The notes below the pieces were generated by a model. It was not told the DNA's origin and ran no database searches. It saw only the letters and a list, made by a program, of their open reading frames with translations. The translations under genes were made by a program, and so were the position numbers. A stretch of 64,000 nucleotides of DNA from Deltaproteobacteria bacterium (GTDB lineage: Bacteria; Myxococcota_A; UBA9160; SZUA-336). Location: the NCBI GenBank assembly GCA_004356455.1, contig SMWZ01000029.1:12897-76896 (forward strand), written 5' to 3'. Shown here one piece after another: positions 906 through 58,893 of the stretch. Numbering within the stretch: position 1 is the stretch's first letter; every line of letters begins with the position of its first letter.

Positions 906-1082
906 CGGTGGTGGTGATCCTGTTCATGATGTTCTGCTACGGAGCCTAGCCCTTCAGGCTGACTAGCATCGGAACCGATTGTAACTCTAGACCTTAGGCT
1001 AGAGGCCAGGGTCTGTGGGATACGCCCACGCGATCCGCTATAGTTGCGACGCCTCAGGGTCGACTGGAAACAGGAAGCCGAG

Positions 1083-19393: not shown

Positions 19394-20707
19394 ATGAGTC
19401 AGGAACCGAGGGAGCGCTGGAGCGGCCGGACCGGGTTCGTGCTGGCGGCGATCGGCTCCGCCGTAGGCCTGGGGAATATGTGGCGGTTCTCGTACCTGAC
19501 CGCCGAGTACGGGGGCGCCGCCTTCGTCCTGCTCTACATCGCGTTCACGATCCTGATCGGAATCCCCATCCTGCTGGCCGAGCTGGCCATAGGACGGGGC
19601 GCGGCGCGCAGCCCGATCAGCGCGCTCGATCATTTCGGGGGAGGTGCCTGGAAGGCTGGCGGGATCTGGTTTGTCGCCTCCGGCTTCTTGATCCTGTCTT
19701 ATTACTCGGTGATCGCGGGCTGGACGCTCCGCTATACGCTGAACGCACTCATCGGCGGCTTCGAGCCCGACACCGGCGCGCACTTCGACGCCGTCAGCCA
19801 GGGAACGGGCGCCGTCGTTGGGCACCTCGTGTTCATGGGAGCCACGAGCCTGATCGTCTCGCGCGGGATCAAGGCCGGCATCGAGCGCACCTCGCTCGTC
19901 CTGATGCCGCTCCTCTTCGCCCTGGTCTGTGGACTCGCGATCTACGCCTACACGCTCGAGGGTGGCCGGGAAGGCTACGCTTTCTACCTGGAGACCGACT
20001 TCAGCAAGATCCTGGACGCTCAGGTCTTCAGCACGGCGGCGGGTCAGGCCTTCTTCAGTCTTAGCCTGGGGATGGGGGCGATGATGACCTACGCCAGCTA
20101 CGTCTCGCCCCAGCAGCACCTGCCAAACGAGTCGTTGGTGATCGGAGGTGCGGACTTCGTTATCGCCTTCGTGGCCGGGCTGGTGGTCTTTCCCCTGATC
20201 TTCGCGCTCGGACTCTCCGCCGACGTGAGCGAGAGCACCTTAGGCGCGCTGTTCATCACGCTGCCCAAGGCCTTTGCGATGATGGGTCTGGCGGGACAGG
20301 CCGTGGGCTTTCTCTTCTTCGCCGCGCTCGTCATCGGCGCTCTCACCTCCGCCATCTCTCTGCTGGAGGTGGTGGTCGCTTCGGCCATAGACACGCTCGG
20401 CTGGTCGCGGCTCCGATCGACGCTCGTCTTCGGCGGCGCGATCGCACTCCTGGGCATTCCCCCGGCCCTGAACATCAACATCCTGGACTGGATGGACAAG
20501 CTCGCGGGCCAGCTCTTTCTGGTGGCCGGTGGACTCCTGCTCGCGATCTTCGTGGGCTGGGTAATGAAGGACCCCTTCAGCGAGGTGCGCAAGGGAGCCG
20601 AGCACGTGGCCTGGTTTCCGCTCTGGCGCTTCCTGCTGCGCTACCCGATTCCGCTGGTGCTGGCCGTGGTGCTCTACTTCTCGGTGAGGAAGCTCTTCTT
20701 CGACTAG
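19394..20707 (+). CDS. sodium-dependent transporter (neurotransmitter:sodium symporter/SNF family)
   Basis: 437 aa. N-terminal GLGNMWRFSYL motif and 11-12 TM. Confidence 0.85.
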   Translation: MSQEPRERWSGRTGFVLAAIGSAVGLGNMWRFSYLTAEYGGAAFVLLYIAFTILIGIPILLAELAIGRGAARSPISALDHFGGGAWKAGGIWFVASGFLILSYYSVIAGWTLRYTLNALIGGFEPDTGAHFDAVSQGTGAVVGHLVFMGATSLIVSRGIKAGIERTSLVLMPLLFALVCGLAIYAYTLEGGREGYAFYLETDFSKILDAQVFSTAAGQAFFSLSLGMGAMMTYASYVSPQQHLPNESLVIGGADFVIAFVAGLVVFPLIFALGLSADVSESTLGALFITLPKAFAMMGLAGQAVGFLFFAALVIGALTSAISLLEVVVASAIDTLGWSRLRSTLVFGGAIALLGIPPALNINILDWMDKLAGQLFLVAGGLLLAIFVGWVMKDPFSEVRKGAEHVAWFPLWRFLLRYPIPLVLAVVLYFSVRKLFFD

Positions 20708-20831
20708 CGCGGTATCGGCGAGCTGTGCTCGCCTGCGCGCACTTCGCTCGGCTGCGCCTCGCTGCGCGGCCTTCGGCCTTGCAGCGCTGGGACTCTCGTG
20801 CTGGCGGCGTGCAGTGCTCGCCGATATGGCG

Positions 20832-22379
20832 CTAGAGCAGCGCCTCGATCAAGTGGGGACCGGGTTCAGCAAGTGCCCGCTCCAGGCTGCGCACGACCGC
20901 GTCTGCACTCTCGACCCGCTCGGACGGCACGCCGAGCGCCGTACCAAGTCCCACCCAATCGATGCTCGGGTTGGAGAGGTCGGTCAGCGCTAGGGCCTGC
21001 GCGCCGGGCTCGGGCACGCCGGCCCGACCGAGCTCAATGCGCAGGATCCGATACTGACGATTCGCACAGATCAGTGTTGTGACGTCGAGGCCCTCGCGTG
21101 CCTGCGTCCACAGCGACTGCAACGTGTACATCCCACTGCCGTCCGCCTGGAAGGCAAGCACGGGACGCTCGGGGCAGGCCAGCGCCGCTCCGGTCGCACA
21201 GGGCAGGCCCTGGCCGATCGCGCCGCCCGTGAGGCTCATATAGGTGTGGGGAGGACAGTGGGCGGAGGCCAGGAAGTAGGGCAGGCCCGAGGTCGCGGCC
21301 TCATCCATCACGATCAAGCCTTCCGGCTGGACAGCGGCAATGGCCGCGCCGAGTGTCGCGGGCGTCAGCTCTCCCGTGGGTCGCCCGGGCGTTACCCACT
21401 CGGCTCCGCCTGGCTCGCTCGCCGCCGCGATCGCGGCGGCCAGGTCTTCCAGCGCGAGGGCCACGTCCTCTTCGGGCTCGGCTAGCCTGTGGCTTATACA
21501 GTCGTCAGGAACGAGTCGACTGGGCGTCTCGGGATAGCCGAAGAACGCCACCGGCTCGCTCACTCCCGCTAGGATCAAGTTCCGCACCGACCCGAGCAGC
21601 TCTATGACCTGCTCGGGGAAGTAGGGTAGACGCTCGAGCACCGGTAGTCCCGCGCCGCGCTCCATGCGCGCGGGGAAGGTCTCACAGAAGAGTCGACACC
21701 CCGTCCGCTCCGCGATGCGCGCGGCCGCGCGCTGAGCCCGCTCGCGCAAGCCACGCGCACCCAGCAGTAGCAGCGTGGGCTCCCCGCTCCGCACCACGCG
21801 CGCAACAGACTCGATGCGCGTGCCGTCCACAGAGGCCGGCGGCTGCAGACTGAGTGCCGAGGCCGGACCGGACGCCTCGCCCCAAGCGACATCGGAGGGC
21901 ACGACCAGCGTCGCGACACTCCCGGGCAGACGCGACGCCGCCGCAATTGCCTCCGCTCCGTCCCGTGCCAGATCGCCCGCGCTCTTCGCTATGCGAAGCC
22001 AGCTCGAAACAGGACGCGCGAGCGACTCGATGTCGGATGCCAGGGGCGGATCGGCGTGTACGTGCCAGCTCGCATGGTCCCCCACCAGATTGACCACGGG
22101 CGAGTGCGCGCGCCGGGCATTGTGCAGGTTGGCGATGCCGTTTGCAAAGCCCGGTCCCAGATGCAGCAGGGTGAGGGCCGGCTTGTCGCACATGCGACCG
22201 TAGCCGTCGGCGGCTCCGGTACACACACCCTCGAACAGACCCAGCACCCCGCGCACACCGGATACCTCATCCAGAGCCGCCACCAAGTGCATCTCGGTCG
22301 TGCCCGGATTGGCGAAGCAGACCTCGACGCCCAGTGCGGCCGCCGTGCGGATCAGGCTTTCGGCGCCGGTCATCTGCAC
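20832..22379 (-). CDS. thiamine-pyrophosphate-dependent enzyme (acetolactate synthase/benzoylformate decarboxylase-like)
   Basis: 515 aa. N-terminal TPP-enzyme Pyr domain and C-terminal TPP-binding GDG...N motif. Confidence 0.75.
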   Translation of the reverse strand: MQMTGAESLIRTAAALGVEVCFANPGTTEMHLVAALDEVSGVRGVLGLFEGVCTGAADGYGRMCDKPALTLLHLGPGFANGIANLHNARRAHSPVVNLVGDHASWHVHADPPLASDIESLARPVSSWLRIAKSAGDLARDGAEAIAAASRLPGSVATLVVPSDVAWGEASGPASALSLQPPASVDGTRIESVARVVRSGEPTLLLLGARGLRERAQRAAARIAERTGCRLFCETFPARMERGAGLPVLERLPYFPEQVIELLGSVRNLILAGVSEPVAFFGYPETPSRLVPDDCISHRLAEPEEDVALALEDLAAAIAAASEPGGAEWVTPGRPTGELTPATLGAAIAAVQPEGLIVMDEAATSGLPYFLASAHCPPHTYMSLTGGAIGQGLPCATGAALACPERPVLAFQADGSGMYTLQSLWTQAREGLDVTTLICANRQYRILRIELGRAGVPEPGAQALALTDLSNPSIDWVGLGTALGVPSERVESADAVVRSLERALAEPGPHLIEALL

Positions 22380-52627: not shown

Positions 52628-52702
52628 CTTGCCGGCCTGGCTGGGGCGGCAGGATTCGAACCTGCGAATGACGGGTCCAAAGCCCGTTGCCTTACCACTT
52701 GG
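52628..52702 (-). tRNA. tRNA-Gln (anticodon UUG), CCA encoded
   Basis: Cloverleaf derived by hand. Perfect 7-bp acceptor stem UGGGGCG/CGCCCCA. Anticodon loop CUUUGGA. T-arm GGTTCGAATCC. Discriminator G plus CCA. Close to E. coli tRNA-Gln. Confidence 0.85.
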
Positions 52703-53573
52703 CGACGCCCCATCCCCAGTTACCGGAGTCACTCCCGGGGGAGCTCACCACTCTTGTCTCCACTCCTCGAGGCAGCTTAACGATCGCTGCCCCCCGCTCC
52801 GTTGCCGCCCGATCCGGAAACCCCCCGTACACCGTGGGTCCGCTGCCGCTCATCCCCGTGACCGTCGCGCCCGCGCGCTCCAATGCGCGCCGCGCGGCCC
52901 CGATCTCCGGGTGGCGCCGCGCCACGGCTGTCTCGAGGTCATTGAGCGGCGAGGAGATCACCCCGGAAGGCCCCAGGAGCGACGCGATACTAGATCCATC
53001 CCGCGGGAGCGTCAATTCGGCGGAGGCCGCCCGGTAGGCAGCGGCCGTAGCGATCGGGAAGGGCAGCAGCAGCAGCAGCCACCATAGCTCCGGAACCCCC
53101 GGGATGGGCTCGAGCCGCTCTCCCACGCCCCGCCCCGTGGCGGGGCGGGGATCCAGGAAGAAGGGGACGTCCGCCCCGAGCTGGAGCGCCAGCCCCTGTC
53201 GGGTCGCGGCGTCCAGCGACTTCCCGGAGAGCTCTTCGACCGCCAGGATCAGAGCGGCGGCATCAGAGGAGCCCCCTCCCAGGCCAGCGGCGATGGGGAT
53301 CCGCTTCTCCAGGCGGATCTTCAGCGCGGGCTCGAGTCCGGTGGCCTGGCAGGCCAGCTCGGCGCCACGCCCAGCCAGGTTCCGGCGATCGGTCGGGAGT
53401 AGGGCCCCCCGCACGTCCAGCTGTATGCCCGGCGTCTCGCTGCACTCCACCGCGATCTCGTCGAAGAGGCGCAGCGGCAGAAACACGGTCTCGATCTCAT
53501 GGTAGCCATCGGCGCGGCGCGCGAGGATGCGCAGCCCCAGGTTGAGCTTGGCCGGCGCCCGGAGCGAGAGCAT
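52692..53573 (-). CDS. ispE: 4-(cytidine 5'-diphospho)-2-C-methyl-D-erythritol kinase
   Basis: GHMP kinase motif PIAAGLGGGSSDAAA. APAKLNL N-terminus. The ORF 3' end overlaps the tRNA 5' end by ~10 nt. Confidence 0.85.
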   Translation of the reverse strand: MLSLRAPAKLNLGLRILARRADGYHEIETVFLPLRLFDEIAVECSETPGIQLDVRGALLPTDRRNLAGRGAELACQATGLEPALKIRLEKRIPIAAGLGGGSSDAAALILAVEELSGKSLDAATRQGLALQLGADVPFFLDPRPATGRGVGERLEPIPGVPELWWLLLLLPFPIATAAAYRAASAELTLPRDGSSIASLLGPSGVISSPLNDLETAVARRHPEIGAARRALERAGATVTGMSGSGPTVYGGFPDRAATERGAAIVKLPRGVETRVVSSPGSDSGNWGWGVAKW

Positions 53574-53741
53574 CTAGTGTTCTATTCCGGGAGTTCCAAC
53601 GCAATTCTTGCAGCCGAGGCAGCGCGCTCGCAAGGCGCGAGAGCGAGGCAAATCCGTAGCTTCAGCGAGCGCGTGCAACGCTACGAGCGTGGCTGCAGCA
53701 GCCGCCGAAAATGCGAGCGAACTTCCGGAACAGGACACTAG
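53574..53741. mobile_element. MITE-like element copy 1 (168 bp) with ~24-bp imperfect terminal inverted repeats CTAGTGTTCTATTCCGGGAGTTCC … GAACTTCCGGAACAGGACACTAG
   Basis: The termini are reverse complements of each other. The whole element is ~85% identical to the first ~110 bp (and terminal inverted repeats) of the reverse complement of copy 2. Non-coding, and abuts the ispE start codon. Confidence 0.65.
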
Positions 53742-53744
53742 CCG

Positions 53745-54077
53745 CTAGCGCTCTTTTTCGTGGCTCTCGACGTAGCGCAGGCGGAGATCGTGCAGCACGC
53801 TCTCCAGCAGATGCAGCTCCTCGGGCTCCAGGTTTCCCTGGGTCTTCACGTGCAGCATCTCCAGGATATCAATGGTCTGGCGCGCCAGCTCCAGGTTGGG
53901 GGCGGGCGCCTCACCACCCTCCGCGCTCGGCACCAAGCCCAGGTGGACGGCGGCCGAGGTGGAGAGGGACAGCACGAAGGCCCCGAACGTCATTGACTCC
54001 GGTGGCGCGGCCGAGGCCGACTCCTGTGGATCCCCCACCAGCTGGAAGCCGCGCTCGCTCTCCTCCTCGGATCCCAC
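53745..54077 (-). CDS. DUF1844 domain protein
   Basis: 110 aa. Conserved FGAFVLSLSTSAAVHLG core. Confidence 0.6.
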   Translation of the reverse strand: MGSEEESERGFQLVGDPQESASAAPPESMTFGAFVLSLSTSAAVHLGLVPSAEGGEAPAPNLELARQTIDILEMLHVKTQGNLEPEELHLLESVLHDLRLRYVESHEKER

Positions 54078-54698
54078 CTACGTAACGTCGGCCCGGGTCG
54101 GATCCTCGCCTGTGCGGTCGAGCTCCCGCAGCAGGCGGCGCGCCACCACCAGGCGTTGGACCGTGGTCACGGTCGCTCCGAGCGCGACGCCCCACAGCGC
54201 CAGCTCGAGCCAGCCCGTGAGCGAACCCAGAATGATCAAAACCATGCGCTCGCCGCGCTCCATGAAGCCGATACTGAAATGAGCCAGGTGCCGTTCGGCC
54301 CGGGCGCGGGTGTAGCTCGTCATGACCGATCCGGTCAGCGCCCAGCACACCAGCAGCACGCCAAAGGCATCTCCGCTCAGCGCCATGCCGAGGGCCATGC
54401 CGCTGAACACGAAGAGATCGGCCAGGCGGTCCATCGAGGAATCGAAGAAGCCACCACTGGTACCGGAACAGCCCTGGGAACGCGCCACGACCCCGTCGAT
54501 CAAGTCGAAGAAGCCTGCCACCCCGAGCGCCAGGCCGGCCCAGACCAGATGACCCGTGGCAAACAGAGCGGCTGCCAGCAGGGACACACTCACCCCCAGC
54601 AGGGTGAGCGTGTCGGGGCGAACCCGAATCCGCGAGACAAAAGGGAACACGCCCAGCACAACGCGGTCGAAGTCGGCCCCGAGTCGAGCCTTGATCAC
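54078..54698 (-). CDS. pgsA: CDP-alcohol phosphatidyltransferase (phosphatidylglycerophosphate synthase-like)
   Basis: D-G-x2-A-R…G-x3-D-x3-D motif (DLIDGVVARSQG…FFDSSMDRLAD). GTG start chosen to avoid overlap with the upstream small gene. Confidence 0.7.
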   Translation of the reverse strand: MIKARLGADFDRVVLGVFPFVSRIRVRPDTLTLLGVSVSLLAAALFATGHLVWAGLALGVAGFFDLIDGVVARSQGCSGTSGGFFDSSMDRLADLFVFSGMALGMALSGDAFGVLLVCWALTGSVMTSYTRARAERHLAHFSIGFMERGERMVLIILGSLTGWLELALWGVALGATVTTVQRLVVARRLLRELDRTGEDPTRADVT

Positions 54699-54708
54699 GT
54701 TGTTGGCC

Positions 54709-54981
54709 TCAGGCCTCGGGTTCGATCGGAACGACCGGCGGCGGCGGCGGCGGCGGCTCGTTCGGCTCCAGCAGCGCCCGCTCGATGCGCTTGGAGCGGT
54801 TGCGCTGCTCGTCCTCGAGCTCCTCCCGCAGACGCGCGAGCTCGTCGTCGTCCGCTTGGTGCACGTTCGAGGCAAGGTCGGGAAGCGCTTGCACAGACGC
54901 CTCGAGCGCCTTGCGTGAAAGCTGGCCCTGGCGCAACTCCCGCTCCTGAAGGCGCTTATCCAGCGCTTTCGCAGCCGTCAT
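54709..54981 (-). CDS. small coiled-coil protein with a poly-Pro C-terminus
   Basis: 90 aa (MTAAKALDKRLQERELRQG…EPPPPPPPVVPIEPEA). Its stop is a few nt upstream of the pgsA start. Confidence 0.35.
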   Translation of the reverse strand: MTAAKALDKRLQERELRQGQLSRKALEASVQALPDLASNVHQADDDELARLREELEDEQRNRSKRIERALLEPNEPPPPPPPVVPIEPEA

Positions 54982-55085
54982 ATTCACTCCTTTCGGCCCG
55001 ATCCCCGGGTGGCGGGCGAAAGAGTCTAACAACGGCTACCGCCTCATGCCCGTCTGCGTTGACAACCCCACCCGCCTGGCTTAAG

Positions 55086-55928
55086 TTGATAAAACCGTTG
55101 ATAGATCAACTACTTAGGGAAAAACACCGACACTGGGGGGTGATCTTCGTGCTGGGGCTGATCGTGGCCGCGGGCTGCGCGAGCGCGCCTCCGGACGAGG
55201 AGATTCCGTCGGCCGAGAGCTACTACCGGCGCGGGCTGGAGCTGCTCGAGGGCCAGCGCGTCTTCCTTTTCTTTCACGATGTGAACTATCCACGCGCGAT
55301 CGAGTATTTCCAGGAGGTGATCGACAACTATCCCTACAGCGACTACGCCACGCTGGCGGAGCTGAAGCTCGCGGACGTGCACTTCCAGCAGGGACATTAC
55401 GAGGAGGCGGCGAGCTACTACCAGGACTTCGTCGAGCTCCACCCCACGCATCCCCAGGTCCCCTACTCCATCTTCCGCCACGGGATGTGCTCTTTCGAGG
55501 AGATCGGCGACGTCGGTCGGGACCAAACGCCGACGCTGGACGCACTGGCGCAGTTTCGTGTGCTGCTCGACCGCTATCCCAACTCGGAGCACGCGGACGA
55601 TGCGCGCGTACGGCTCGGCCAGGCCATCGACCAGCTGGCCCGCCACGACATCGAGGTCGGCGACTTCTACTACCGCCGCGGGGACTATTATGCGGCCTCG
55701 CGACGTTACCGCCAGGCGCTGGAGATGTATCCGGATCACAGCGAGCGCGTAACGACCCTGGTTCGTCTGGGCCGTTCGCTGATGGGTCTGCAGCTGTACG
55801 CCGAGGCCGAGCGAATCTACCAGCAAGCGCTGGACGCGCGTCCCCCGGGCGGGCTTCGGAATAACGACCGGAAAGAGCTCAGGGAGTTCGGCGAGGACCT
55901 CTGGAACGCCCGCAAGGAAGCCAGCTGA
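55086..55928 (+). CDS. bamD: outer membrane protein assembly factor BamD (TPR lipoprotein)
   Basis: Lipobox VAAGC. TPR repeats (YYRRGLELLEG…, FQQGHYEEAASYYQDF…, YYRRGDYYAASRRYRQALEMYP). Start ambiguous: TTG 55086/55098 or GTG 55140. Confidence 0.7.
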   Translation: MIKPLIDQLLREKHRHWGVIFVLGLIVAAGCASAPPDEEIPSAESYYRRGLELLEGQRVFLFFHDVNYPRAIEYFQEVIDNYPYSDYATLAELKLADVHFQQGHYEEAASYYQDFVELHPTHPQVPYSIFRHGMCSFEEIGDVGRDQTPTLDALAQFRVLLDRYPNSEHADDARVRLGQAIDQLARHDIEVGDFYYRRGDYYAASRRYRQALEMYPDHSERVTTLVRLGRSLMGLQLYAEAERIYQQALDARPPGGLRNNDRKELREFGEDLWNARKEAS

Positions 55929-55932
55929 GCGC

Positions 55933-56277
55933 CTAGTATCCTGTTCCGGAAGTTCGCTCGCATGCTCGGCGACCGCTGCATCCGCGCTTGCGGCGTTGCA
56001 CGCGCTTGCCGAAGTGAGCCTGGATTTCTCACCGGGTTGCCGTAGCGAGGGTGCCAAGTGTGCGTCAGATCGGGCCGCGCGCAGGCCGAGGCACCGGAAA
56101 CGTATTGGACAATAGGTTGAGGAGCCGAGGCCGAGCATGGGCCGAGATGGCGTGCAATGGGCGGCCGCAGTAGGCCACCGGGCGAGATATCCAGGCTAGG
56201 GATTCGCCGCGCTCGCGCGCCTTGATAGCGCGGCGCGTCGGCCGCGAGAACTGCGTCGGAACTCCCGGAACAGAACA

Positions 56278-56281
<4 letters not shown>
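55933..56281. mobile_element. MITE-like element copy 2 (349 bp), inverted relative to copy 1, with the same ~24-bp terminal inverted repeats (CTAGTATCCTGTTCCGGAAGTTC … GGAACTCCCGGAACAGAACACTAG)
   Basis: Termini and the first ~110 bp align with the reverse complement of copy 1. The right-hand terminal inverted repeat contains the alaS stop codon (CTAG). About 180 bp of extra internal sequence. Confidence 0.65.

Positions 56282-58893
<2,612 letters not shown>

Follow-up and report, generated by a model that had tools for sequence, protein, structure and literature searches.

Insertion sequences (ISs) of the IS630 family move by cut-and-paste transposition into TA, a reaction that their transposase carries out alone (PMC2170065), and IS630 itself generates a 2-bp duplication at the TA of a CTAG target (PMC2577343 Table 1; Tenzen and Ohtsubo 1991 as cited in PMC2170065). 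The textbook bacterial miniature inverted-repeat transposable element (MITE) of IS630 type is RUP of Streptococcus pneumoniae, a short non-coding element with IS630-like terminal inverted repeats (TIRs) that inserts at TA and is thought to be mobilized in trans by IS630-Spn1 (PMC2229807). Here we analyze a 64,000-nucleotide stretch (hereafter the window; contig SMWZ01000029.1 of assembly GCA_004356455.1) from a Deltaproteobacteria bacterium, in which two homologous non-coding repeats lie next to ispE (copy 1) and alaS (copy 2). We conclude, with a probability of roughly 0.9, that both repeats are IS630-family MITEs inserted at CTAG sites at gene ends. We refer to their family as MITE-A, and to a second family, found inside copy 2, as MITE-B.

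The resemblance of MITE-A to RUP extends to its short non-coding format, IS630-like TIRs, insertion at TA and a presumed transposase in trans, whereas its dimensions differ (168 bp with TIRs of ~24 bp and strict CTAG termini, compared with 107 bp and 9-bp TIRs for RUP; PMC2229807 Table 1), as do its sequence and the phylum of its host, which are unrelated to those of RUP. In addition, RUP has its partner IS in the same genome, while the partner of MITE-A was found only in other metagenome-assembled genomes (MAGs) and in the same metagenome. The Neisseria elements known as Correia or NEMIS likewise combine a length of ~100–155 bp with ~24-bp TIRs, a terminal TA and a mostly intergenic location, are co-transcribed as long hairpins and come in several sizes distinguished by an internal block (PMC2229807). 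They have no sequence relationship with MITE-A, and no matching IS ends had been reported for them (PMC2229807), whereas a matching IS is identified here. The chemistry that we propose below is taken from IS630 of Shigella sonnei and from ISY100, which share DDE cut-and-paste transposition, N-terminal helix-turn-helix domains and insertion at TA with a 2-bp duplication, IS630 preferring CTAG (PMC2170065; PMC2577343 Table 1); these are autonomous elements, whereas those in the window appear to encode nothing. The kind of element is therefore already known, and novelty lies in the sequence family and its host, in how strictly CTAG is rebuilt at stop codons and in a nested composite that is mobile.

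The two copies were compared through repeat-finder blocks and through an alignment with the insert of copy 2 removed; a MAFFT alignment of the two whole copies, in which the central insertion misplaced one half, was not used. Both copies are bounded by CTAG and ~23-nt TIRs and have opposite orientations, as stated in the preliminary description of this DNA, which a model had made from the letters alone. The TIR motif, CTAGTGTYCTRTTCCGGRAGTTC, has exactly four matches in the window, which form two convergent pairs (53574/53741 and 55933/56281), and matched none of 100 dinucleotide shuffles; an element with a cognate transposase would be expected to have CTAGTGTCCTGTTCCGGAAGTTC ends. The repeat finder pairs 53660-53746 with the reverse complement of 55928-56014 (87 nt, 85%) and 53574-53660 with that of 56195-56281 (87 nt, 84%). 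At the center of copy 1 (53660) these blocks abut, whereas in copy 2 they are separated by 181 bp, and copy 2 without 56016-56196 is exactly 168 bp long and 84% identical to copy 1. The earlier description confined the homology to the first ~110 bp plus both termini; the homology in fact extends over the full 168 bp of copy 1, around an insertion. In size (168 and 349 bp), coding content and TIR length (23 nt), both copies have the properties of a MITE; open reading frames (ORFs) in the six frames of the region mostly extend into the flanks or are spurious in DNA of 66% G+C.

Related assemblies contain both filled and empty versions of these sites. The AlaS protein of the window is unchanged in five other assemblies (ENA, NCBI GCA_004356505.1, JGI 3300024516 and 3300009102), and GCA_027295425.1 has 99.5% DNA identity to the window; both elements are present in all of them. 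For two of the five (L065 and L066, JGI contigs of the same locus; L numbers are our labels), the gene finder did not call ispE downstream of copy 1, and the spacing is the same. The closest empty site is that of L068 (Logan SRR31656002), with a BamD 92% identical and flanking DNA 94–95% identical to the window: the site of copy 2 reads ...GACAGCTAGCCCGAGAGCAG..., the 349-bp element is absent, and in the sequence GAAGACAGCTAGCCCGAGAGCAG the stop codons of bamD and alaS overlap in a single palindromic CTAG. Two further relatives with ~70% BamD identity (L069 and L070/L071) lack both copies. Their bamD/alaS gaps measure 5 and 21 nt, the ispE ATG is separated from the DUF1844 stop codon by 6 nt (CATGAGAGCTCA) or directly adjoins it (CATTCA), and alignment of their DNA with the window is interrupted exactly at 53573/53751 and close to 55912/56283. 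The filled site is thus CTAG...CTAG and the empty one (L068) a single CTAG, with no repeat extending beyond CTAG. The lack of a direct repeat outside CTAG fits duplication of TA within a CTAG target, the reading offered in the preliminary description, and matches the published target of IS630 (PMC2577343 Table 1; PMC2170065). Presence or absence of the elements makes no difference to gene order and orientation (prs-ispE-DUF1844-pgsA-orf90, bamD and alaS). The pair does bracket the DUF1844-pgsA-bamD block in inverted orientation, as had been emphasized, but this has no visible consequence, since element-free relatives share the arrangement; the idea that the inverted pair had inverted or moved the block was rejected, synteny with relatives being intact.

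Both repeats sit at the gene boundaries originally reported for them: copy 1 abuts an ispE ATG that is also the start used by orthologues, and the alaS stop TAG is the reverse complement of bases within the terminal CTAG of copy 2. CTAG occurs 55 times in the window against 201 expected (3.7-fold under-represented), and at 12 of these 55 sites it coincides with the stop of a coding-like ORF; TA itself occurs 1018 times against 1852 expected (1.8-fold under-represented). In this genome of 66% G+C, CTAG is rare and often located at gene ends, which accounts for copies exactly at gene boundaries, so that the gene-end position is largely what CTAG targeting predicts. An association with stop codons beyond the distribution of CTAG was considered and set aside, because ~6 of 15 MITE-A copies ending at a coding-like ORF stop (our own tally), set against 12 of 55 sites, are numbers too small to support the claim. 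With copy 1 in place, ispE and DUF1844 are 171 nt apart, compared with 0–6 nt in relatives, and the insertion has therefore displaced the original ribosome-binding region, along with any translational coupling. The elements may affect the expression of ispE, bamD or alaS. A stronger proposal, that they are more than neutral passengers, with CTAG rebuilding acting as a "safe harbor" that lets MITEs of high-G+C genomes settle at stop codons of essential genes and with their hairpins co-opted, strikes us as rather unlikely. If it were true, copy 1 might be a site at which RNA is processed or at which DUF1844 and ispE, genes with translational coupling in relatives, are decoupled, and copy 2 might be a two-way terminator between bamD and alaS.

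The occurrence of MITE-A elsewhere was examined with an exact-pattern TIR scan of a set holding one genome per prokaryotic species, the window's own genome lying outside that set. The scan returned 61 stretches, several tens of which, scattered over unrelated phyla, are expected by chance by our own estimate from the information content of the pattern; the remainder are concentrated in a few high-G+C MAGs. The "Deltaproteobacteria" MAG CSMAG_3071 has MITE-A at ~15 contigs or loci, where BLAST and a mismatch-tolerant scan show paired ends that enclose 168-bp elements, 83–86% identical to copy 1 and 93–97% identical among themselves. The Myxococcota MAG JB083 carries five copies on four contigs, which form a 198-233-bp subfamily, and the "Deltaproteobacteria" MAG NC_groundwater_1023 has TIR matches on seven contigs, all 117–139 nt from a contig end. 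Single contigs with a TIR come from another Myxococcota MAG (L013, an unpaired end), a Binataceae MAG (L007) and a Spirochaetaceae-labelled MAG (L056), among others. The paired elements (168-233 bp) occupy unrelated loci with different flanks in every case, nearly all copies have CTAG at both ends, and no direct repeat lies outside CTAG. Copies of the repeat are consequently found in at least four MAGs and at further loci in the same metagenomes, so that the BLASTN search suggested for further copies gave a positive answer.

This dispersal, together with the empty sites, bears on the possibility that the repeats are not mobile elements but structured RNAs or regulatory sites (for example a terminator, attenuator or small RNA) conserved through selection in the host. 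Both copies form very stable long hairpins (copy 1, -84 kcal/mol, z = -6.4; copy 2, -191 kcal/mol, z = -6.9; relative to shuffles), and their exact gene-boundary positions would also suit such a function. However, inverted repeats by themselves give rise to such hairpins, relatives have element-free orthologous spacers of 0–21 nt, and copies adjoin unrelated genes in other genomes. A scan of 53300-56600 against Rfam gave no relevant match at E ≤ 1 and only a chance lncRNA match at E = 0.32; a consensus scan found no sigma-70-type promoter-like site in the region, and there are no terminator-like sites within the elements. None of the 59 consensus pairs shows compensatory changes among nine aligned copies, and on this ground the structured-RNA reading was dropped; it is largely refuted by the empty sites, and we regard it as highly improbable.

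A transposase with matching inverted repeats, which had been suggested as a check, was found: complete IS630-type elements share 23–25-nt ends with MITE-A, but they are located in other MAGs. The first is a 1162-bp element in the Binataceae MAG (L007:4069-5230), with CTAGTGTCCTGTTCCG at both ends and 28-nt arms that are 86% complementary; one of its ends is identical to the MITE-A TIR over 23 of 23 nt. Its 362-aa protein matches NCBIfam transpos_IS630 (NF033545; E = 4.8e-82, score 276, cut-off 100), as well as Pfam DDE_3 and several helix-turn-helix domains. The TIR itself provides the last codons of this transposase gene, ACT TCC GGA ACA GGA CAC TAG (T S G T G H stop), and the stop of the gene is the TAG of the terminal CTAG. 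More than 8000 homologues are present in the protein database at E ≤ 1e-30 (one annotated Polyangiaceae), and the C-terminus is exactly -RTSGTGH in 50 of the 120 best homologues, with close variants in most others; these ends therefore define a widespread IS630 subgroup. The subgroup (362 aa, -RTSGTGH) has at most 68% identity to IS630-family genes annotated on plasmids. Among the neighborhoods of unpaired ends, a full transposase near a TIR match occurs only in L007, while unpaired MITE-A ends in CSMAG_3071 and JB083 adjoin only ordinary host genes.

The contig ends of NC_groundwater_1023 provide a second partner, since they are both ends of an IS630-type element in seven different flanks, each preceded by C-TA. 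One end leads into the transposase start (MVGLGRPKAKLVVAPSERE...), the other encodes the last 45 transposase residues, 71% identical to those of L007, and both carry a perfect 25-nt TIR, CTAGTGTCCTGTTCCGGAAGTTCGT, which MITE-A matches over 24 of 24 nt. Since all seven TIR matches (L020, L028, L031, L033, L039, L053 and L054) lie <140 nt from a contig end, the assembly of this MAG evidently breaks inside a multi-copy IS630 element. A complete 1164-bp element of the same subgroup, with ends CTAGTGTCCTGTTCCTGAA..., is also present at L093:958-2121 (JGI 3300009102 Ga0114948_10071017; also SMUY01113191.1), beside another transposase gene in DNA of 60% G+C whose host is uncertain.

These partners also weigh on the alternative that MITE-A belongs to another repeat class, either repetitive extragenic palindromic (REP) sequences and bacterial interspersed mosaic elements (BIMEs) moved by REP-associated tyrosine transposases (RAYTs; IS200/IS605-like) or repeats resembling enterobacterial repetitive intergenic consensus (ERIC) sequences, and that its match to IS630 ends is coincidental. 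Palindromic intergenic repeats of such classes occur commonly, and the search for an IS630 transposase of this genome, which covered the window plus ~194 kb of contigs, was negative. Identity over 23–25 nt to the ends of complete IS630 elements is nevertheless far beyond chance, the same bases encode the transposase C-terminus and stop codon in those elements, and the TA/CTAG junctions are an IS630 signature. REP sequences are shorter (20–40 nt) and are not known to make a TA duplication. We accordingly give this alternative very little credence.

Plant genomes commonly contain MITEs nested within other MITEs, and such nesting has also been reported from some bacteria. The insert in copy 2 belongs to a second MITE family, unrelated to MITE-A. 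Its extra ~180 bp had been thought capable of carrying a structured RNA; what is found instead is a nested MITE with TIRs of its own, TA flanks and dispersed copies, and with neither an Rfam match nor covariation. The flanks are GA (56016-56017, a mutated TA) and TA (56197-56198), and the insertion point is the central TA, where copy 1 has GAAGC-TA-CGG. The inverted ends (24–25 nt) read GCCTGGATTTCTCACCGGGTTGCC and GCCTGGATATCTCGCCCGGTGGCC, and the MITE-B TIR has two matches in the window and none in shuffles; a partner transposase gene would be expected between GCCTGGATWTCTCACCSGGT ends. A metagenome scan with this TIR returned 21 stretches, mostly from Ga0209980 and Ga0114948, samples that hold the window genome, or from SMUX01/SMUY01 metagenome records, with a G+C of 0.645–0.663 compared with 0.66 for the window. 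They include stand-alone 179-bp copies, 96% identical to the insert (L073 and L081/L090), and variants of 239–242 bp (L080 and L085/L088/L089), all flanked by TA...TA or with one TA mutated. MITE-B ends with different interiors also occur (L075:6997, L082:1241, L083:1158, L079:156 and L087:9416-9471, the last a 56-bp mini-element), none of them with an adjacent transposase. Beside unpaired MITE-B ends there is no partner transposase, only further subfamilies with the MITE-B TIR.

A second composite, at L077:7328-7675, is 93.7% identical to copy 2 over 349 nt and has different outer flanks. Its MITE-B occupies the same nesting point and has the same mutated GA flank, from which it follows that nesting happened once and that the composite was later copied through its MITE-A ends; the composite probably moved as a unit. 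As in other nested MITEs, one TA-targeting element resides in another and the composite persists; different here are the copying of the composite itself to a new locus and the existence of hybrids between the two families. We found no paper on nested MITE composites in Myxococcota. The A/B hybrids, of 101 bp (L078:8634-8734, the same locus in L076) and 225 bp (L086:5601-5825), have one MITE-A end and one MITE-B end, a common A/B junction sequence and CTAG/TAG flanks. MITE-B lies in them in the direction opposite to that in the window composite, which means that simple deletion within the latter did not produce them; should the hybrids be mobile, their movement would require two different transposases acting jointly on a single element. 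The remaining alternative, that each copy is the remnant of a full-length IS630 element whose interior was deleted in place and whose short form never transposed, would account for the IS630-like ends but is the least credible of all, because the same 168-bp length and interior (83–97% identity), unrelated to the IS interior, recur across loci and genomes, the MITE-B composite recurs at a second locus with an identical nesting junction, and independent deletions would not converge in this way.

We propose that an IS630-type DDE transposase, supplied in trans, would bind the ~24-bp TIRs of MITE-A, excise the element and insert it into a CTAG, at the TA, which would thereby be duplicated. With G as its first base and C as its last, the element proper would rebuild CTAG on both sides; where the target CTAG contains the TAG stop of a gene, as at alaS, the stop codon would be kept and the coding sequence would remain intact. 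Copy 2 later received the unrelated, TA-targeting MITE-B (179 bp) at the TA of its central loop, and the 349-bp composite was then copied to at least one other locus via its outer MITE-A ends. Mobilization in trans by a transposase with matching ends is what the arrangement suggests, and the elements may still be active.

Several observations weigh against the IS630-MITE reading or restrict it. Beyond the ~24-nt ends, the interior of MITE-A is unlike that of the IS, so that, as far as sequence comparison goes, "derived from" IS630 really means "shares ends with" IS630. As previously noted, there is no transposase in the window (tblastn gave no IS630-type homologue), nor was an IS630-type transposase found in ~194 kb of further contigs with matching G+C that the metagenome scan had returned, mostly from samples holding this genome; the only IS630 copy that this metagenome yielded (L093) differs from the MITE-A TIR at one position and has 60% G+C flanks. 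The MITE-A copies in this lineage are 84–91% identical and the termini of the L077 copy are mutated (CTGG/CGAG); the copies are therefore not recent, and they do not demonstrate recent activity. Finally, the closest empty site shows a small difference, an indel of 7 nt adjoining CTAG that distinguishes L068 from the window. The outgroup L069 (TGAGCGCGTTAG) resembles the inferred pre-insertion sequence of the window (TGAGCGCCTAG), which suggests that this indel is a deletion in the L068 lineage. Against these points stand the dispersal of the repeat, the empty sites recovered by the proposed search of relatives (one CTAG in L068 at the site of copy 2, and neither copy in L069 or L070/L071) and the matching ends of autonomous elements, all of which favor the IS630-derived MITE advanced in the preliminary description.

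The window holds another CTAG-bounded, MITE-like element at 20704-20835 (132 bp, with 30-nt inverted ends CTAGCGCGGTATCGGCGAGC), whose two terminal CTAGs coincide with stop codons of the long convergent ORFs that flank it; three ends related to it are present in metagenome contig L073 (2371, 2457 and 11979). This brings the CTAG-bounded MITE families of this genome to at least three. Close CTAG pairs elsewhere in the window (946-999, 10219/10237, 16775/16793 and 63765/63816) could mark further small elements. Features of the ispE-alaS region are collected in the table.

Table. Repeats, their ends and the adjoining genes, in window coordinates.
Feature	Position	Strand	Remarks
MITE-A copy 1	53574..53741	+	168 bp CTAG-to-CTAG; between ispE start codon and DUF1844 stop codon
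MITE-A copy 1, element proper	53577-53738		duplicated TA at 53575-53576 and 53739-53740
TIR of copy 1, ispE-proximal	53574..53596	+	motif match
TIR of copy 1, DUF1844-proximal	53719..53741	-	matches NC_groundwater MAG IS630-type ends over 24 nt (CTAGTGTCCTGTTCCGGAAGTTCG)
MITE-A copy 2	55933..56281	-	349-bp composite, a 168-bp MITE-A split by MITE-B; between convergent bamD and alaS
TIR of copy 2, bamD-proximal	55933..55955	+	motif match, 1 mismatch
TIR of copy 2, alaS-proximal	56259..56281	-	bases 56278-56280 (CTA) are the alaS stop TAG on the minus strand
MITE-B	56018..56196	+	nested second MITE family, 179 bp; 24-nt TIRs GCCTGGATTTCTCACCGGGTTGCC and GCCTGGATATCTCGCCCGGTGGCC
ispE	52692..53573	-	GHMP kinase, 293 aa; ATG (53571-53573) directly beside copy 1 CTAG
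DUF1844 gene	53745..54077	-	110 aa; stop codon 3 nt from copy 1
bamD	55149..55928	+	259 aa, lipoprotein; TGA stop 4 nt before copy 2
alaS	56278..58893	-	871 aa; stop codon inside terminal CTAG of copy 2

These results account for the unusually long spacers around ispE and alaS by repeats and not by regulatory RNAs, and they give a reason for contig breaks at one and the same 24-nt sequence in related MAGs. For this population, the filled and empty sites can serve as strain markers. The current understanding of transposition is unchanged, MITE-A being a well-documented, ordinary kind of bacterial mobile DNA. For the IS630 family, the locus offers a clean natural example of stop-codon-preserving CTAG targeting in an uncultured high-G+C Myxococcota lineage, and an example of MITE-in-MITE nesting followed by movement of the composite.

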